Sequence record: OZ336095.1 | DNA length: 64,000 nucleotides | Source of the DNA: a phage | Reading direction: 5' to 3' (one strand) | In this document: piece after piece, positions 8,733-64,000 of the stretch | How positions within the stretch are numbered: the stretch's first letter is position 1 | Layout: every line of letters begins with the position of its first letter | Notes under the pieces: generated by a model | Seen by the model: the letters and a program-made list of their open reading frames with translations, nothing else | Database searches by the model: none | What the model was told of the DNA's origin: nothing | Translations under genes and position numbers: made by a program

Positions 8733-10085
8733 ATGTGGAATCCAATTGTTAATGTAGATATTACATTGAACACCGCAGGAACTACAAGAGAAGGTTTTGG
8801 TTTGCCACTATTCTTAGCTTCAACAGATAACTTTGAAGAAAGAGTGCGTGGTTACACTTCCTTAACTGAAGTTGCTGAAGATTTCGATGAGAATACTGCT
8901 GCATATAAGGCTGCTAAACAACTTTGGAGTCAGACTCCTAAAGTAACTCAGCTTTATATTGGTAGACGCGCTATGCAGTACACTGTATCAATTCCTGATG
9001 AGGTTACTGAGAGTACGGACTACTCAATTACTGTAGCTGTCGGTGGAGGAATGTCACAACCATTCCAGTACACCTCTCAATCTGAAGATACTGCCGAGAA
9101 GGTATTACAACAGTTTAAAACACAGATTGAAGCTGACCAATCAATTAAAGATAAAGTATCAGTCAATGTTACTGGTAGCAACGGTTCTGCCACAATGGTC
9201 ATCTCCAAAGCTGGTGACAATGATTTCGTGAAGGTAACCACTACAGCACAAACTGTATCTGTTGCAAGCACAACTGCTGATACAGCGTCAACTGCTCTGG
9301 CAGCTATTGAAGCTTATTCTACCGACTGGTATTTCATTGCAGCAGAAGACAGAACTCAACAGTTTGTCTTAGCAATGGCTTCTGAGATTCAGGCTCGTAA
9401 GAAAATCTTCTTCACAGCTAACTCTGATGTAGCAGCACTACAAGGTACAGAATTAAACAGTGCAAATGATGTTCCAGCACAGCTTGCTAAGAGTATGTAT
9501 ACTCGCACAGTTTGCTTGTGGCATCACACAGCGGCAGAAGATTATCCAGAGATGGCATATATTGCTTATGGTGCTCCATACGATGCAGGGTCAATTGCTT
9601 GGGGTAATGCTCAGTTGACTGGTGTAGCTGCTTCTTTACAGCCAGCTAATAAGAGACCTCTGACAAGCATTCAGAAGTCAGCTTTAGATGCACGTCACTG
9701 TAACTTTATCGACCTTGATGGTGGTGTTCCAGTGGTTCGTAGAGGGATTACTTCTGGTGGGGAATGGATTGATATCGTCCGTGGTGTTGACTGGTTAGAA
9801 TCAGACCTGAAAACTTCTCTGAGAGACTTGCTAATTAACCAGAAGGGTGGTAAGATTACTTATGATGATACTGGCATTACCCGTATTCGTCAAGTCATTG
9901 AAACCTCTCTGCAAAGAGCAGTCAACAGAAACTTCCTGTCATCTTACACAGTTAATGTTCCTAAAGCCTCTCAAGTTGCTTTGGCAGACAAGAAAGCTCG
10001 TATCCTGAAAGACGTTACCTTCGCAGGTATCTTAGCAGGGGCTATCTTGGATGTTGACTTGAAAGGTACAGTGGCTTACGAATAA
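8733..10085 (+). CDS. tail sheath protein (putative)
   Basis: 450-aa ORF immediately upstream of tube-sized ORF, chaperone pair and tape measure; synteny. Confidence 0.5.
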   Translation: MWNPIVNVDITLNTAGTTREGFGLPLFLASTDNFEERVRGYTSLTEVAEDFDENTAAYKAAKQLWSQTPKVTQLYIGRRAMQYTVSIPDEVTESTDYSITVAVGGGMSQPFQYTSQSEDTAEKVLQQFKTQIEADQSIKDKVSVNVTGSNGSATMVISKAGDNDFVKVTTTAQTVSVASTTADTASTALAAIEAYSTDWYFIAAEDRTQQFVLAMASEIQARKKIFFTANSDVAALQGTELNSANDVPAQLAKSMYTRTVCLWHHTAAEDYPEMAYIAYGAPYDAGSIAWGNAQLTGVAASLQPANKRPLTSIQKSALDARHCNFIDLDGGVPVVRRGITSGGEWIDIVRGVDWLESDLKTSLRDLLINQKGGKITYDDTGITRIRQVIETSLQRAVNRNFLSSYTVNVPKASQVALADKKARILKDVTFAGILAGAILDVDLKGTVAYE

Positions 10086-52412: not shown

Positions 52413-52683
52413 AGAGAAGTGGGAGATTTTACCATTAGTCAGTGAAGGTGGTAATGGTTGTGAGATGTACATGATACGTGGTCATGTTCCAGAACCAATT
52501 GCACTTGAGATGGTAAACAACTTTACAGATGGCTCTTACAAAGACTTAGGAGAGCCAACTATAAAGCAGCAATGGGTAAAGCCTGTACCAGACAGCACAG
52601 GTAACTGTAGTGTACTTTATCACGTTGTAGACCCTGCAAAATGCAAATCTGCAATGGCAGTAACAAACGTAACTTTTGATTGA
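52405..52683 (+). CDS. hypothetical protein
   Basis: 92-aa ORF overlapping flanking genes. Confidence 0.3.
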   Translation: MAKEKWEILPLVSEGGNGCEMYMIRGHVPEPIALEMVNNFTDGSYKDLGEPTIKQQWVKPVPDSTGNCSVLYHVVDPAKCKSAMAVTNVTFD

Positions 52684-52694
52684 GAGAGAAAACT

Positions 52695-53576
52695 ATGAAA
52701 ACATCTATCCGTGTTACAGTTCATTCACCAACTAAAGGGACTCATGAAGAAGAGTTTAACATCGTCCAATTCCCTTCTGGTGAGATTGGTGGACACTTTT
52801 CGCCAGAGTTTGTTGATTTTACTGCTTATGCAGCATCATCTATCAACAATGTGATTATGATTGTAAAAGGTTATGATAAGGACACATTGTTTGCTGTGGC
52901 ACTTGCTAAAGAAGCAATTGATGATTTAGTACCTCATAAGTTTGCTATGAAGACTGCTATCTTTTACTATTTGCCAAATGCACGTTACGACCGTCACATG
53001 TTTAAAGGTGATGCAGCAGCTTTGAAAGTGTTTGCACAACAGGTTAATGCAATGGGTTTTGATGCAGTCTGTGCAGTTGACCCTCACAGCTATGTACCAG
53101 ATAACCTGTTTAACTGCTTCCAGAGTATTCCTCAAAAGGAAATTGCAGTCCACTATGCAAATGACCCACTGATTGATTACTTAGTAGCCCCAGATGCAGG
53201 TGCTGCTAAGAAGATTGCAGAGACTGCTAAAGAGGTGGATAAACCATACATCACAATGTCTAAAGTGCGTAACCTTAAGACTGGTGAAATTACTGGTATG
53301 CGAATCCTTGATGATGTTGATTTGACAGATAAAACCGTCATGATTCTGGATGATATCTGTGATGGTGGTCGAACCTTCATAGAAGCAGCGAAGCATCTTC
53401 GTGAAGCAGGTGCAAAACGTGTGGAACTTTATGTAACACATGGTATCTTCTCTAAAGATGTTGAAAACCTTCTTGACAATGGTATCGACCATATTTACAC
53501 TACAAACTCTTTAGGCGAAGCTAAAGACCGTGGCTTAACACATTACAGTCAAGTTACTGTAGCAAACCTTGATTGA
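52695..53576 (+). CDS. ribose-phosphate pyrophosphokinase-like (PRPP synthetase family)
   Basis: PRPP-binding-type motif 'VMILDDICDGGRTF'; ATG 52695 after GAGAGAGAA (track start 52680 is TTG); ~293 aa. Confidence 0.7.
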   Translation: MKTSIRVTVHSPTKGTHEEEFNIVQFPSGEIGGHFSPEFVDFTAYAASSINNVIMIVKGYDKDTLFAVALAKEAIDDLVPHKFAMKTAIFYYLPNARYDRHMFKGDAAALKVFAQQVNAMGFDAVCAVDPHSYVPDNLFNCFQSIPQKEIAVHYANDPLIDYLVAPDAGAAKKIAETAKEVDKPYITMSKVRNLKTGEITGMRILDDVDLTDKTVMILDDICDGGRTFIEAAKHLREAGAKRVELYVTHGIFSKDVENLLDNGIDHIYTTNSLGEAKDRGLTHYSQVTVANLD

Positions 53577-53585
53577 AAGTTTATA

Positions 53586-53606
53586 GGGGCTTAAAAGCCC
53601 CATTTT
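53586..53606 (+). terminator. weak hairpin terminator
   Basis: GGGGC ttaaaa GCCCC followed by ATTTTG. Confidence 0.35.
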
Positions 53607-53621
53607 GAGAGAGATTAAAAG

Positions 53622-55403
53622 ATGACTAAATCACTTTATGCAGTACCAGCAGGTTTAAACGCAGATGCTTACAAATCTGGTCATGTTTACCAGTACCCTA
53701 GTGCAACAGAATACTTGATGTTCAACCTGACACCACGTAGTGACAAATGGTTTAACAGCCCATTAGCAATTGATGGTGTAGTAGCTTTTGGTATTCAACG
53801 TTTCGTTAAAGATTACTTGATAGACCACTGGAACGCCACTTTCTTTGAACGTGATAAAAAAGAAGCCATTGATGAAATATTAGAAGTCATGAATGGTGTT
53901 CTGGGTAAAGATGCTATCGGTCGAGAGCATTGGGAAGCACTTCACGACTTAGGTTATCTACCAGTTGAAGTATACGCTGTAGAAGAAGGTACAGTTGTCC
54001 CTATGCGTGTCCCAATGATTGTCTTCCAGAACACTGTTTCAGGTTTCCATTGGGTAGCGGGGTATCTGGAAGATGCTTTCTCTGCTGAGATTTGGAAGGC
54101 TTGTACCATTGCAACTATTGCATTGCATTATAAACGCATCTGTAAGAAGTGGGCTGACCTTACTTGCGACAACGACTTACATTTACCTTATCAGTGCCAT
54201 GACTTTGCTATGCGTGGTATGTCCGGCTTTACTGATGACGCATTTAACGCTGTAGGCCACTTAACCAGCTTTAAAGGAACTGATAGCTTCCCTGCTGTGT
54301 ATACGGCTAAACGAATCTATGGACAGTCTTACCCAATCTCTGATATTGGTAGCTCTGTACCAGCCACTGAGCACTCTGTAATGTGTGCAAACATTGCTTG
54401 GGAAGGTGGTAATGAGTTGATTGAAGAAGAAAGACGCTTTAAAGGTGAGTTACAAACCTTCCGTCGTTTCTTAACAGAAACTTACCCAACTGGTATTGCA
54501 AGTATTGTTTCAGATACTTATAACTTCTGGAGAACTGTGTCAGAAATCTTACCAGCACTCCGTAAAGAAATTATGGAACGTGATGGTAAACTGGTAATTC
54601 GCCCTGACTCTGGAGACCCTGTACATATTGTCACAGGTTATAAAGCAATCCACTTAGAGTGTGCTAAAAAGGCTTATTACGAGCACCTAAGCAAGCTTGA
54701 AGCCAGCGACACAATGTTGAATGCTGTTCTGAACATGAAGCTTGAAAACATCAACTATGGTATTGCTGGATGGCTACTGTCAGAAGGCTACGAAATGGTT
54801 GTTGACAGAGAAGACTTTGAAGTTGCTGATACAGTGCTGTTGAAAAACGCTTATATGGTTGGTTCTGCAAACGTTGTAACACGTCCTGTAGCGGAGATTG
54901 ATGGAGCTATCAAGACACTGTATAACATCTTTGGGGGAACTATTAACTCTAAAGGGTTTAAGGTACTGGATGAGCACATCGGCCTTATCTATGGTGACTC
55001 TATCACGCTGGAACGTGCAAACGAAATCATGAAGCGTCTGTATGAAATGGGTTTTGCAAGCTCTAACGTAGTATTTGGTGTAGGCTCTTACACTTACCAG
55101 TACATGACTCGTGACACCTTTGCATTTGCTGTCAAAGCAACTCTTGCAAGCATTGGTGGTAAAGAGATTATGCTTGCAAAAGACCCTAAAACAGATAGTG
55201 GTGTTAAGAAATCTGCCTTTGGTGGTGTAGCACCTATGTGGGATGGTGAAAATCTGAAAGCTGTAGATGGCTATGGGTTCCAGAGCTTTGCAGATGCACT
55301 TGAACACCCAGCTTGTGCTTTACGTCTAGTCTTTAGTGACTCTGAGCAGTTCGGCTACACAACTCTTGGTGATATTCGAAATAATATTGACAAGCAGCTT
55401 TAA
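53622..55403 (+). CDS. nicotinamide phosphoribosyltransferase-like (NAMPT/NadV family)
   Basis: 593 aa; N-terminal 'NADAYKSGHVYQYP' matches the NAMPT 'D.YK..H..QYP' signature. Confidence 0.8.
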   Translation: MTKSLYAVPAGLNADAYKSGHVYQYPSATEYLMFNLTPRSDKWFNSPLAIDGVVAFGIQRFVKDYLIDHWNATFFERDKKEAIDEILEVMNGVLGKDAIGREHWEALHDLGYLPVEVYAVEEGTVVPMRVPMIVFQNTVSGFHWVAGYLEDAFSAEIWKACTIATIALHYKRICKKWADLTCDNDLHLPYQCHDFAMRGMSGFTDDAFNAVGHLTSFKGTDSFPAVYTAKRIYGQSYPISDIGSSVPATEHSVMCANIAWEGGNELIEEERRFKGELQTFRRFLTETYPTGIASIVSDTYNFWRTVSEILPALRKEIMERDGKLVIRPDSGDPVHIVTGYKAIHLECAKKAYYEHLSKLEASDTMLNAVLNMKLENINYGIAGWLLSEGYEMVVDREDFEVADTVLLKNAYMVGSANVVTRPVAEIDGAIKTLYNIFGGTINSKGFKVLDEHIGLIYGDSITLERANEIMKRLYEMGFASSNVVFGVGSYTYQYMTRDTFAFAVKATLASIGGKEIMLAKDPKTDSGVKKSAFGGVAPMWDGENLKAVDGYGFQSFADALEHPACALRLVFSDSEQFGYTTLGDIRNNIDKQL

Positions 55404-59992: not shown

Positions 59993-60541
59993 ATGAAGAA
60001 ATTGATTCTAGGTTTGTGCTTAATGTTTACAGCACACTTATCTTATGCAGTTGACTGCCCAGAGCTATCAATTAGCCAAAAAGTAAACATGTTAAAAGCT
60101 TACCAGTATGGTGAGAATAACATGGGTAAAGGTTGGGGTATAACTCTAGCTGCTATAGCCTTACAAGAGTCAGAGTTAGGTCTGAAGGTAGAGAATAAAA
60201 AGACACATGATTATGGTATTTTCCAGAATCACTTGAAGACTGTTGTAAAGCGTAACAAAATTAGCCCTAATGTGGCTAAAAAGAAACTCTTAAAAGATTT
60301 TGACTATGCTGCGAAGGAAACGCACAAAGAACTTGAGTTTTGGACAAAGGTGCATGGTCAGCCAAAGTCAAAGAAGACTTTACAAAAAGTTTTAGCATCA
60401 TATAATGCTGGGTATTCGTACAGAATCCCTAAAGCTAAGAAGTATTCTCAAGATGTCTATAACAACATGAAAGTTATTGCTCAATGTGAATTTGCAACAA
60501 ACATTTCTAAGGTAAATCATGAAAAAATTAAGAAAGTCTGA
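59993..60541 (+). CDS. lytic transglycosylase (SLT domain) with N-terminal signal peptide
   Basis: 'MKKLILGLCLMFTAHLSYA' signal peptide; SLT motifs 'AIALQESELG', 'DYGIFQ', 'ASYNAGY'. Confidence 0.65.
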   Translation: MKKLILGLCLMFTAHLSYAVDCPELSISQKVNMLKAYQYGENNMGKGWGITLAAIALQESELGLKVENKKTHDYGIFQNHLKTVVKRNKISPNVAKKKLLKDFDYAAKETHKELEFWTKVHGQPKSKKTLQKVLASYNAGYSYRIPKAKKYSQDVYNNMKVIAQCEFATNISKVNHEKIKKV

Positions 60542-61214
60542 TGAAGTACTGTGTCATGCTTATGACTTACATCCTCATGAGTTAGGTCTTGATTCCTGTG
60601 TATGGACTCCAGAACAGTGTAGGGATTTTGAAGACACCGCAAGAGAGGTTGTATGTTCACTCGAAGAGTTCCACACATCAGAGCCAATTGTTAATGTTGT
60701 AGATAAAGAGACTGGACAAGCTATAGGTGTAAGTCGTGATAGTTTAGTCATAGTCAATAAAGACCTTGTAGAAAAAGGGAATCTCATCTTAGCAGATATT
60801 GATGGTGTTCTTACAAATTTTAATCACGAAGATTGTTCAACGGAATTGACTGACGGTTCATTCTCGCAGTATACCAATCTTCTTGATTCTGTAAGAGCAA
60901 AGCCGACGTATGTTTTCAATATCATTGATGCAATTGCTAATCATGCTGCTGTTGGACTCTTGACAGCGAGAGGTGAATCTCAGAGAATACCTACTGAGAT
61001 GTTTTTAAGGCATAACACAGAGCATGATTACATGCTTTTTATGCGTGGTTTTGGGACTAACTCTATAAGTGCAGAAAGTTTGAAAGTAAGGATGATTCAG
61101 TCTTGCATTCTTCCTTACTTTAATATAGTATGCTTTATAGAAGACACAGAGAAGAATGTTCAGAAGGTAAACAGAATACTTCCACACATCAAAACCATGT
61201 TAGTTAAACATTGA
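60519..61214 (+). CDS. HAD-superfamily phosphatase-like protein
   Basis: HAD motif I 'ILADIDGVL', motif II 'GLLTARG', acidic motif 'FIEDTEKN'. Confidence 0.45.
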   Translation: MKKLRKSDEVLCHAYDLHPHELGLDSCVWTPEQCRDFEDTAREVVCSLEEFHTSEPIVNVVDKETGQAIGVSRDSLVIVNKDLVEKGNLILADIDGVLTNFNHEDCSTELTDGSFSQYTNLLDSVRAKPTYVFNIIDAIANHAAVGLLTARGESQRIPTEMFLRHNTEHDYMLFMRGFGTNSISAESLKVRMIQSCILPYFNIVCFIEDTEKNVQKVNRILPHIKTMLVKH

Positions 61215-61741: not shown

Positions 61742-62089
61742 ATGACATTTAAAGAGTTTTGTCAAGCTACTTTCATAATTGTTTTCTTAGTTGGGGCAGG
61801 TGTCTGGGGAGGATACTCTTACAGAGACTACCAAGTTGCTGAAACTGAGCTAAATAATGAGAAACTAATAAGTGTTGCCAAAGATGCTTATCAGGAAGGT
61901 TTAGCCACACTCAGCACCAATTACAAAAATGATTTGAAAGATGTGCTTGCTAAGAATAAGCACACAAAAGAGGTACTAACATATGAAAAAACTAAGCCAG
62001 AGTTTTATAATGTTTGTGTTACTGATAATTATGTCAGGGTGTTCAACGAACAAAGTGAACAGTACATTCAAAAACTCCCAAGTAAGTGA
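61742..62089 (+). CDS. i-spanin-like protein (N-terminal TM + periplasmic coiled coil), tentative
   Basis: 'FIIVFLVGAGVWGGY' TM segment near N-terminus, then charged helical region; overlapped by lipoprotein ORF. Confidence 0.35.
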   Translation: MTFKEFCQATFIIVFLVGAGVWGGYSYRDYQVAETELNNEKLISVAKDAYQEGLATLSTNYKNDLKDVLAKNKHTKEVLTYEKTKPEFYNVCVTDNYVRVFNEQSEQYIQKLPSK

Positions 62090-62252
62090 GAGTGATAAGT
62101 ACACTCAAGAAGATTCAAGATTCACTATCAAAGGTAATACTGGTAGTGATGTGGCAGCAGCCCTTGAGTTCTATCGTGATGGATTTTACCAGTGCACAAT
62201 CAAAGCTAATAACCTTATTGATATGATTTTATTAGGAAATAAACAGCAATGA
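61983..62252 (+). CDS. o-spanin-like lipoprotein, tentative
   Basis: starts inside 61742 ORF in another frame; 'MKKLSQSFIMFVLLIIMSGC' signal peptide with lipobox-like MSGC. Confidence 0.3.
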   Translation: MKKLSQSFIMFVLLIIMSGCSTNKVNSTFKNSQVSESDKYTQEDSRFTIKGNTGSDVAAALEFYRDGFYQCTIKANNLIDMILLGNKQQ

Positions 62253-62847: not shown

Positions 62848-63049
62848 AAAGACACGGAAACTTATCAGGTCAGCGGTGTTCATTGGACGAAATAAGGTCA
62901 TACCATTTGCAGCAAATGATGTGATAGCTTACCGGAAGAACTTAGTATTCACTGACTGTTTACGTGGCTTCATCTCTGAACCATTAGAACACTTTAAAAG
63001 TCGTTGTGGTAAAGGCATCATCATTCAAGAGGTAATTATTCATGGCTGA
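62822..63049 (+). CDS. hypothetical protein
   Basis: 75-aa ORF. Confidence 0.3.
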   Translation: MKVILARDKKTRKLIRSAVFIGRNKVIPFAANDVIAYRKNLVFTDCLRGFISEPLEHFKSRCGKGIIIQEVIIHG

Positions 63050-63242
63050 TTTCTGCAAAGACTGTGCTATCGAAATGTTTGGACGTGATACAGGTGATTT
63101 AAAAGGTCTTATCACTGAAGATGACTTTAAAGCTGGCTATGCAATGCCAGTAATCTGTGAAGGTTGTGGGTGCATCTGGGTAGACCACGAAGGGCAACGT
63201 GTAAAACCTTCAGAAGATAAAGAATCTTGGGAGAGATGTTAA
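63042..63242 (+). CDS. small zinc-binding protein
   Basis: 66 aa with 'CKDC' and 'CEGCGC' cysteine clusters. Confidence 0.3.
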   Translation: MADFCKDCAIEMFGRDTGDLKGLITEDDFKAGYAMPVICEGCGCIWVDHEGQRVKPSEDKESWERC

Positions 63243-64000
63243 ATGGGTATTGTAAAAATCATCAAAGGTGATATCTTTGACGCATTTGATAAAGGTAAGT
63301 TTGACATCATTGGTCACGGTTGCAACTGTATGAACTTCATGGGTGCAGGTATTGCAGCAACTATTTCCAAGCGTTATCCAAAAGTGTATGATACTGACAC
63401 AGAAGTTTACCTGTTTGCAGGTGGCATTCGTCACAAACCCTGTGAAAATTTACTAGGTAATTTCTCTGTAGCACGTTTAAAACAAGGCCGTATAGCTAAC
63501 CTTTACACCCAACTTCATACTGGTAAAGATGCCCGATACAGTGCTTTAGAGTCATCTTTGAAACAGCTTAACAGATACTGTGAAGTTAACCAGTTGAAGA
63601 AAGTTGGTCTACCTATGATTGGTGCAGGTATCGGTGGGCTTGACCCTCAAGCTGTCACAGTTATCATTAATCAGGTGATGAAGAGTGTAGATGTTTATCT
63701 GTATGTCTATGAAGCAAAAATGTATAATGAGTTACACTCAGGTTGGAAAAACTACTGTGAACCAGAATACTTTGCAGGTGTAGTTGTGTTCACAGATAAC
63801 GAAGTTACCCTCTTCAGACGAAGAAAAGGTAAGATACATCAAAGTAACCCTCCGGTTGAAAAGATGTCTCTGAGTAACGCTCTAGTTACCCACCTGTCGA
63901 AGAGCAATCACAGGATTGCAGTAACATTTGGCAGTGATGCAGATACTTATATCTATGCAAGAACTGATGAGGATATCGAGACAGTTTTCTCTTCACCAGA
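63243..64000 (+). CDS. macrodomain protein (TARG1-like ADP-ribose hydrolase family), 3' end truncated by window
   Basis: ATG 63243 right after upstream stop; 'KGDIFDAF..DIIGHGCNCMNFMGAGIA' and 'LPMIGAGIGGLD' parallel the TARG1/OARD1-type macrodomain; reading frame open to window end. Confidence 0.55.
   Translation, partial: MGIVKIIKGDIFDAFDKGKFDIIGHGCNCMNFMGAGIAATISKRYPKVYDTDTEVYLFAGGIRHKPCENLLGNFSVARLKQGRIANLYTQLHTGKDARYSALESSLKQLNRYCEVNQLKKVGLPMIGAGIGGLDPQAVTVIINQVMKSVDVYLYVYEAKMYNELHSGWKNYCEPEYFAGVVVFTDNEVTLFRRRKGKIHQSNPPVEKMSLSNALVTHLSKSNHRIAVTFGSDADTYIYARTDEDIETVFSSP

Follow-up and report, generated by a model that had tools for sequence, protein, structure and literature searches.

At the right edge of a 64,000-nucleotide (nt) stretch of one strand of the phage record OZ336095.1 (hereafter the window, meaning the whole stretch analyzed) lies a gene whose product begins with a macrodomain of the TARG1/DarG/Poa1p-like (ALC1-like) class and continues into a C-terminal domain (Table 1). 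From its ATG at position 63243 the reading frame is open for 252 codons, up to the window end. The original prediction, made from the sequence alone, had described this open reading frame (ORF) as a TARG1-like macrodomain protein and candidate reverser of host ADP-ribosylation, and all the elements of the signature on which it relied (GDIFDAF, IIGHGCNCMNFMGAGIA, LPMIGAGIGGLD, and VDVYLYVY) are present in the translation. It had also recognized, correctly, that the C-terminal region is cut by the window end; only nine residues are missing. The full gene, which it had proposed to obtain, was recovered from near-identical relatives, where it comprises 786 base pairs (bp) and encodes 261 residues with the C-terminal end SSPEVTFLDAKN before the stop codon. 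The part past position 64000 thus consists of the residues EVTFLDAKN and the stop. The full-length protein of VpaE1_ev78 is identical across all 252 residues encoded in the window, and the gene of phage tootiki is also full-length.

The window has 93–98% DNA identity to many records that place it in Felixounavirus (Ounavirinae, Felix O1-like), a genus of virulent phages, so that the description of the phage as virulent was reasonable. Some 250 genomes of Felix O1-like phages (Ounavirinae) have kept the gene. It matches PHROG 335 (“phosphatase”, E 1.7e-110), and in GenBank its relatives are labeled “putative phosphatase”, “macro domain protein”, or “O-acetyl-ADP-ribose deacetylase”. We therefore regard it as a macrodomain/phosphatase of a known family that hundreds of genomes already have annotated, here placed more precisely, and not as a new kind of system.

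An early-region transcription unit ends with the macrodomain gene, and in relatives a strong terminator-like hairpin (a 17-bp stem, then a T-run) stands 3′ of the gene. Its ATG abuts the TAA stop codon (63240–63242) of a 66-residue ORF upstream, an arrangement consistent with co-transcription and translational coupling of the two genes. Farther upstream, the adjoining Adps-like and Namat-like genes (52680–55403 together) are the NARP1 operon for the reconstitution of nicotinamide adenine dinucleotide (NAD+), a system discovered and characterized in the Felixounavirus Bas63 (bioRxiv 10.1101/2024.02.11.579819). The macrodomain gene lies 7.8 kb downstream of NARP1 in a different transcription unit, about 14 genes away, with rIIA, rIIB, and about 12 other ORFs between. 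The substrate of NARP1 is ADP-ribose (ADPR), which provides a conceptual link to the macrodomain gene.

Table 1. Positions in the window of the macrodomain gene, the parts of its product, and associated genes
Feature	Position	Strand	Basis or remark
Macrodomain-protein gene, codons 1–252 of 261, cut by the window end	63243..64000	+	ORF translation
Shine-Dalgarno-like GGGAGAG, 7 nt 5′ of the start codon	63229..63235	+	Read from sequence
Macrodomain, residues 1–157, TARG1/DarG/Poa1p-like class, Gln-type active site	63243..63713	+	Pfam, PDB sequence and fold matches, AlphaFold2
HGCNC motif, His25–Cys29	63315..63329	+	Alignments
NLYTQ motif, Asn86–Gln90, then a short loop without insertion	63498..63512	+	Alignments
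PMIGAGIGG glycine-rich diphosphate-binding loop, Pro124–Gly132	63612..63638	+	Alignments
C-terminal orphan domain, residues 158–252 of 158–261	63714..64000	+	tblastn, HMMER, BFVD
66-residue ORF with two CxxC pairs (FCKDC...CEGCGC)	63042-63242	+	Sequence
Adps-like (phosphoribosyl pyrophosphate-synthetase-like) gene	52680-53576	+	Adjoins the Namat-like gene
Namat-like (NAMPT-like) gene	53622-55403	+	Adjoins the Adps-like gene

Fold and active site of the macrodomain

Profile and structure searches, proposed earlier as a check on the assignment, confirmed that the ORF encodes a macrodomain. Residues 25–141 match positions 2–117 of the 118 positions of the Pfam Macro model (PF01661) with 30.2 bits (gathering score 22, E 4.8e-7). 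When the single sequence was compared with the PDB by phmmer, the top match was TARG1/OARD1 (4j5r, E 1.2e-6), and a profile built from 28 family sequences again placed TARG1 first (4e-17), with SCO6735 (9e-17), Poa1p (1e-15), DarG (4.5e-15), and also BT1257 among the next matches. An AlphaFold2 model, made with the family alignment for a full-length homolog of 90% identity, had a predicted local distance difference test score (pLDDT) of 90.4 and a predicted template modeling score (pTM) of 0.88. Foldseek matched this model with probability 1.0 to TARG1 (template modeling [TM] score 0.86), Thermus aquaticus DarG (0.81), and Poa1p (0.77), and with the same probability to viral macrodomains. Yeast Poa1p (PDB 6LFQ), an ADP-ribose 1′′-phosphate phosphatase and the source of the “phosphatase” annotation, shares the fold and an H-x-C-N-C motif with the window protein at about 23% identity.

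The likeness to TARG1-type hydrolases claimed in the original prediction holds for sequence and fold, in both of which TARG1/OARD1 (PDB 4J5R/4J5S) is the best match of solved structure, but it does not extend to the catalytic residues. The Lys84–Asp125 dyad of TARG1 is absent from the window protein, where Lys84 aligns with Gln90 and Asp125 aligns, in single-sequence, profile, and multiple alignments alike, with Gly131. Because the dyad is replaced, the covalent mechanism that proceeds through a lysine Schiff base cannot apply, and the chemistry predicted from these alignments is that of SCO6735 and T4 Tk.4 rather than that of TARG1 and DarG. Residues H25, G26, N28, C29, M33, G36, A38, D52, G72, N86-L-Y-T-Q90, P124, G127, and G129 are invariant in the family alignment. 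Among the putative ADP-ribose-binding elements, D10, the N-terminal Asp predicted to contact the adenine, is nearly invariant, and the MGAGIA (33–38) and IGAGIGG (126–132) loops, the two glycine-rich elements for the phosphates, are conserved.

The most informative counterpart for the active site is SCO6735 (PDB 5E3B), in which Gln also replaces the catalytic Lys. Residues H25, N28, Q90, and G127–G129 of the window protein match the positions of H24, N27, Q85, and G128 of SCO6735; Asn28 also aligns with Asn22 of DarG, and Gln90 also aligns with Lys80 of DarG and with Lys78 of PhiKZ AdfM. Mutational data are available for both DarG and SCO6735, and the Q85A and N27S mutants of the latter are inactive, while the wild-type enzyme efficiently removes ADP-ribose from thymidine in single-stranded DNA and rescues cells from DarT (PMC9411070). 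Because His25, Asn28, Gln90, and the glycine loop are kept as in SCO6735, we consider a lysine-independent, water-mediated mechanism to be a reasonable inference by analogy for the window protein. The two proteins are both basic, and both are orphans without an adjacent DarT. They are only 23% identical, however; the “mobile loop” of SCO6735 is longer and contains Lys89 and Lys93, the loop of the window protein being short, and Val25 of SCO6735 is replaced by Gly26. Moreover, SCO6735 is encoded on a bacterial chromosome, with regulation of the SOS type. DarG2 and the PhiKZ protein gp104 (AdfM), whose task of clearing DarT2 adducts from DNA is proposed to be shared by the window protein, are of the same fold class and conserve the asparagine (N22/N23), but they use a lysine (K80 and K78) where the window protein has Gln90 (PMC13309987).

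Relationship to T4 Tk.4 and to the Adpp proteins

Homologs of the macrodomain were found by tblastn in 3,017 phage records, T4 tk.4 included; the bacterial and plasmid homologs are orphan genes, with no adjacent DarT in the contexts examined. The window protein is 35% identical to T4 Tk.4 across the whole domain (E 5e-24), and the two share HGCNC, MGxGxA (MGSGVA in Tk.4), NLYTQ, PxIGAGIG (PRIGAGIG in Tk.4), and a short loop. Both genes lie in the early region of virulent enterobacterial myophages, and both products are of the subtype that we term short-loop or T4-type, with HGCNC, NLYTQ, G-x-G-I, and no insertion after the Gln, a set of features derived in the present analysis and not taken from a curated family definition. 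Tk.4 differs in being a stand-alone, acidic protein of 155 residues, whereas the window protein combines a basic macrodomain with an orphan C-terminal domain of about 100 residues. A transposon screen and a clean knockout found tk.4 (AdfM) to be needed for the growth of T4 on DarTG2 hosts (bioRxiv 10.1101/2025.11.20.689424), and a Lys-type AdfM from chimalliviruses removes DarT2 adducts in vitro (PMC13309987). As a homolog with the same motifs is required against DarTG2, the earlier suggestion that the window gene is a candidate for DarT counter-defense is well founded.

That suggestion was made without considering Adpp, a group of proteins that is equally close to the window protein and biochemically proven, and whose activity is not a reversal of ADP-ribosylation. 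The RES-domain defense aRES splits NAD+ into nicotinamide and ADPR-1′′-phosphate (ADPR-1′′P), a product that NARP1 cannot use, and Adpp, a Poa1p-like macrodomain found in 15% of NARP1 operons, dephosphorylates ADPR-1′′P (Osterman et al., bioRxiv 10.64898/2026.01.28.702374). In the same work Adpp is defined as encoded within two genes of NARP1 (Adps/Namat), and the Adpp of Vibrio phage Gary (gp137) is a proven ADPR-1′′P phosphatase that is required for NARP1-AP to overcome aRES. It was only in 2025–2026 that phage macrodomains were shown to act against specific defenses, namely Tk.4 and the chimallivirus AdfM against DarTG2, and Adpp against aRES (bioRxiv 10.1101/2025.11.20.689424; PMC13309987; bioRxiv 10.64898/2026.01.28.702374).

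We compared the window protein with 11 NARP1-linked Adpp sequences from Table S1 of the latter study. These belong to the same broad Poa1p-like family with a Gln-type active site (28–36% identity, mostly with E 1e-13 to 4e-21, the weakest being 1.063.O at 9e-11 and RYC at 3e-7), and their host phages likewise carry NARP1; their genes lie inside the NARP1 operon and encode no C-terminal domain, unlike the distant window gene. An insertion of 3–7 residues follows the Gln (Q-Y-x-Y/W-G...) in all 11 but is missing from the window protein; in 10 of the 11, HGCNC is replaced by H-Q/V-x-N-C/A, and NLYTQ by N-x-Y-G-Q or N/H-L-H-A/S-Q. The exception is the Adpp of Acinetobacter phage vB_AbaM_phiAbaA1, which has HGCNC and NAYTQ but retains the long post-Gln insertion. 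When hidden Markov models (HMMs) of the two classes were set in competition, the short-loop model having been built without the window protein’s own lineage, the window protein scored 151.6 bits with the short-loop/T4-type model and 112.4 bits with the Adpp model, a margin (+39 bits) typical of class members in a jackknife. By its motifs and the indel, the window protein sides with T4 Tk.4 and not with Adpp; the neighbor-joining tree does not resolve the two groups. The phiAbaA1 Adpp itself scores about equally with the two models (127 vs. 132 bits), and would be a useful test case for specificity.

Proposed function and alternatives

Taking the above together, we tentatively prefer, while stopping short of an even wager on it, the removal of ADP-ribose from DNA modified by DarT2 as the function of the window protein. 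The gene would yield an early-expressed, two-domain counter-defense enzyme whose N-terminal macrodomain would hold the ADP-ribose moiety by the MGAGIA and IGAGIGG loops and Asp10. The bond to be hydrolyzed, at the 1′′ carbon of the distal ribose, would then be cleaved without a lysine: Gln90, kept in place by Asn28, is predicted to position this ribose as well as the transition state for attack by an activated water, as proposed for SCO6735. The most likely substrate would be ADP-ribosyl-thymidine put on single-stranded phage DNA by the host DarT2, so that the protein would be a T4 Tk.4/AdfM-type orphan antitoxin that lets replication continue in hosts with DarTG2. As for the C-terminal domain, it may be a lineage-specific accessory module, most likely engaged in a protein-protein or targeting interaction. 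A slight argument in favor of this reading is that the macrodomains of Ounavirinae are uniformly basic (isoelectric point [pI] 8.9–9.2), like SCO6735, TARG1, and T. aquaticus DarG.

Several observations weigh against DNA de-ADP-ribosylation as the function. The activity of Tk.4 on DNA was itself deduced from genetics, and the function has been demonstrated, genetically, for T4 only. The sequences of the short-loop HMM were partly ascertained through their similarity to the window protein, and a strict Tk.4-clade HMM gives 97 bits, below the 112 bits of the Adpp HMM. In pairwise comparisons, Tk.4 (33–36% identity, 82–83 bits) and the best Adpp (30–36%, 75 bits) lie at similar distances, and the best neighbor-joining tree, in which the window lineage is a separate branch, groups it with the T4-type proteins with a bootstrap of only 8% (100 replicates). 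The window phage does encode NARP1, to which an ADPR-1′′P phosphatase would be useful. A metagenomic short-loop homolog with NLYTQ (P0020, 339 residues) is fused to a cREC_REC domain (PF20274, E 4.7e-7), and this fusion to a cyclic-phosphate-processing receiver domain suggests that some short-loop members work on cyclic or 1′′-phosphates of ADPR. Two further indications were examined and set aside. Net charge is an unreliable predictor of a DNA substrate, because T4 Tk.4 and PhiKZ AdfM are acidic, and we rejected it for that purpose. The NCBIfam DarG model matches the window protein with 55 bits, below the equivalog cut-off of 250 bits, and this match was rejected as a sign of DarG-likeness since known ADPR-1′′P phosphatases score about the same with the profile (35–49 bits for Adpp, compared with 30 for Tk.4 and 138 for the DarG-like PhiKZ AdfM).

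The strongest alternative, which we consider possible but rather unlikely, is that the protein is an Adpp-like ADPR-1′′P phosphatase acting in trans with the phage’s NARP1 against aRES. It would remove the 1′′-phosphate to yield ADPR, from which Adps and Namat would then rebuild NAD+, and it might also recycle the ADPR-cyclic-phosphate and ADPR-1′′P that arise from spontaneous decay of the NARP1 intermediate ADPR-pyrophosphate (ADPR-PP). The homology of the window protein to the Gln-type Adpp proteins, with the activity of the Gary enzyme proven, argues for this, as do the place of Poa1p among the top sequence and fold matches, the wide use of the label “phosphatase” for relatives, the cREC fusion of P0020, and the presence of NARP1 in a genus in which that pathway was characterized. 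Against it stand the location of the gene outside the NARP1 operon and in another transcription unit, the missing post-Gln insertion and Adpp motifs, and the outcome of the HMM competition. The co-occurrence of the macrodomain gene with NARP1 was discarded as a discriminator, since it is lineage-wide in the Ounavirinae and hence uninformative. Finally, a protein of the same subtype is needed by T4 against DarTG2, and the T4 tk.4 locus has no Adps or Namat. To our knowledge T4 has no NARP1 anywhere, and if so, the short-loop subtype works independently of NARP1.

It is less probable that the protein is an enzyme of broad specificity or dual function, which would combine DNA de-ADP-ribosylation with activity on small ADPR esters (ADPR-1′′P, O-acetyl-ADPR) or on ADP-ribosylated RNA or protein, such as the products of CmdT-like or other host ADP-ribosyltransferases (ARTs), and so serve several counter-defenses at once. 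Macrodomains are often promiscuous, and SCO6735 accepts DNA as well as protein substrates (PMC9411070); a survey of viral NAD/ADP-ribose metabolism lists O-acetyl-ADP-ribose (OAADPr), Appr1p, and macromolecular conjugates as macrodomain substrates (PMC9503650). The similar distances of the window protein from two functionally different relatives, and the GenBank records that say O-acetyl-ADP-ribose deacetylase, would also fit. What a promiscuous enzyme does in vitro is no proof of its physiological roles, however, and the annotation of the phage includes neither an ART nor a sirtuin partner.

Slightly more doubtful still is a reading in which the window protein is a complete, non-homologous mimic of the two-part DarG antitoxin, or one enzyme that serves both counter-defenses. 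As a mimic, the Gln-type macrodomain would erase ADP-ribose from DNA while the fast-evolving orphan domain would block a host toxin directly (DarT2 or another NAD-consuming effector, e.g., aRES) or, alternatively, would tether the enzyme to the replication fork. In the other variant, the enzyme would clear DarT2 lesions and also supply ADPR, released from ADPR-1′′P, to the phage’s own NARP1.

It seems very improbable that the protein only binds or soaks up ADP-ribose without catalysis, or that it has a housekeeping function outside defense (e.g., the clearance of RNA-repair by-products, as for yeast Poa1p): the canonical Lys and Asp of TARG1 and the Lys of DarG are indeed missing, and a neighboring gene is labeled “polynucleotide kinase” in some relatives, but the His, Asn, Gln, and Gly loops, on which Gln-type enzymes depend, are invariant across the family, and this argues for catalysis. 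Poa1p acts after Tpt1 in tRNA splicing, and neither Tpt1/KptA nor an RNA ligase is annotated in the phage group of the window; in one complete relative, no ART, Tpt1/KptA, 2H enzyme, or RNA ligase is annotated. A Poa1p-style role in RNA repair is unlikely for these reasons and because the kinase neighbor is without Pfam support. The further suggestion of the original prediction, that the protein consumes ADP-ribose-derived signals, found no specific support.

Which defense is countered matters in practice, as Felix O1-like phages serve in biocontrol and therapy against Salmonella and Escherichia coli, and knowledge of it would make it easier to foresee the host range on strains with DarTG2 or aRES. 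The answer would also reveal whether phage macrodomains that repair DNA can be told from those that remove phosphate by a simple signature of indel and motifs, and in Bas63 a genetically tractable model is at hand.

The C-terminal domain and neighboring genes

The orphan C-terminal domain is the one undescribed feature of an otherwise known family. Modeled alone (pLDDT 78), it consists of one helix, six beta-strands, and a further helix. With the domain as query, tblastn returned 243 phage records, all of them Felix O1-like apart from two that are apparently mislabeled, and a divergent version occurs in Ounavirinae phages of Pectobacterium. When 1.84 billion representative proteins were searched exhaustively with HMMER, the four hits included no relatives outside the domain’s own family, bar one spurious repeat protein (P0030, a repetitive surface protein of 2374 residues matched in 10 stretches). 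P0029 and P0031, which might have been taken for stand-alone copies, were dismissed as truncated members of that family. The domain alone gave no matches in a word-indexed homolog search, a fold search of BFVD found only the domain’s own family, and in the DarG profile the half that binds DarT is not matched by the domain, so that the DarT-binding C-terminal domain of DarG is without counterpart in the window protein.

The domain evolves about twice as fast as the macrodomain, as judged by identities of 78 vs. 50% and 48 vs. 16% for the macrodomain and the C-terminal domain, respectively, and its charge is inconsistent (pI 4.6–8.7). Given this fast evolution and inconsistent charge, a protein-interaction or targeting module is a better fit than a DNA binder of a generic kind. 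The domain is missing from T4 Tk.4 and from most homologs, which we take to mean that it is accessory and not needed for catalysis. The partner of so compact and fast-evolving a domain could reveal a new way to target or inhibit a host defense protein.

The 66-residue ORF immediately upstream of the macrodomain gene looks like a zinc ribbon from the spacing of its four cysteines. Its homologs occur in 836 phage records with 55–100% identity, in groups as unrelated as Felixounavirus, rV5-like and T5-like phages, and one Pseudomonas podophage. We do not consider it a conserved partner of the macrodomain gene, since Pectobacterium phage Arno162 has an unrelated ORF in its place and the Cys4 gene occurs alone elsewhere; it appears to be a small gene that is widely exchanged among phages. 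Between rIIB and the macrodomain gene there is also an overlapping i-spanin/o-spanin pair (61742–62089 and ~62031–62246, + strand; annotation from phage tootiki). For the 231-residue ORF at 60519–61214 (+ strand), which some relatives label “polynucleotide kinase”, Pfam gave no match with E ≤ 0.01, and this annotation looks unsupported. On the other side of the macrodomain gene, the hairpin in relatives is followed by 450–800 bp without an annotated gene up to the next ORF (L001, 7030–7550), and the same gene-free gap is present in Arno162 (9032–9729). No tRNA was found when this gap was searched in the relatives.

Two minor observations concern the wider set of homologs. On the Bacillus thuringiensis plasmid pAM65-52-3-235K (L008, 3479–4465), a “SLOG family protein” has a homolog of the macrodomain as its C-terminal part, and its neighbors in a phage-like Bacillus element are genes for a GIY-YIG nuclease, a Thg1-family protein, and an NAD-dependent ligase; the SLOG-macrodomain fusion might act on signals of the cyclic ADPR type. 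Lastly, the GenBank record MG065664.1 (“Campylobacter phage A132”) and one “Staphylococcus” record are 98–100% identical to the Felixounavirus region, and are probably mislabeled or contaminated entries.

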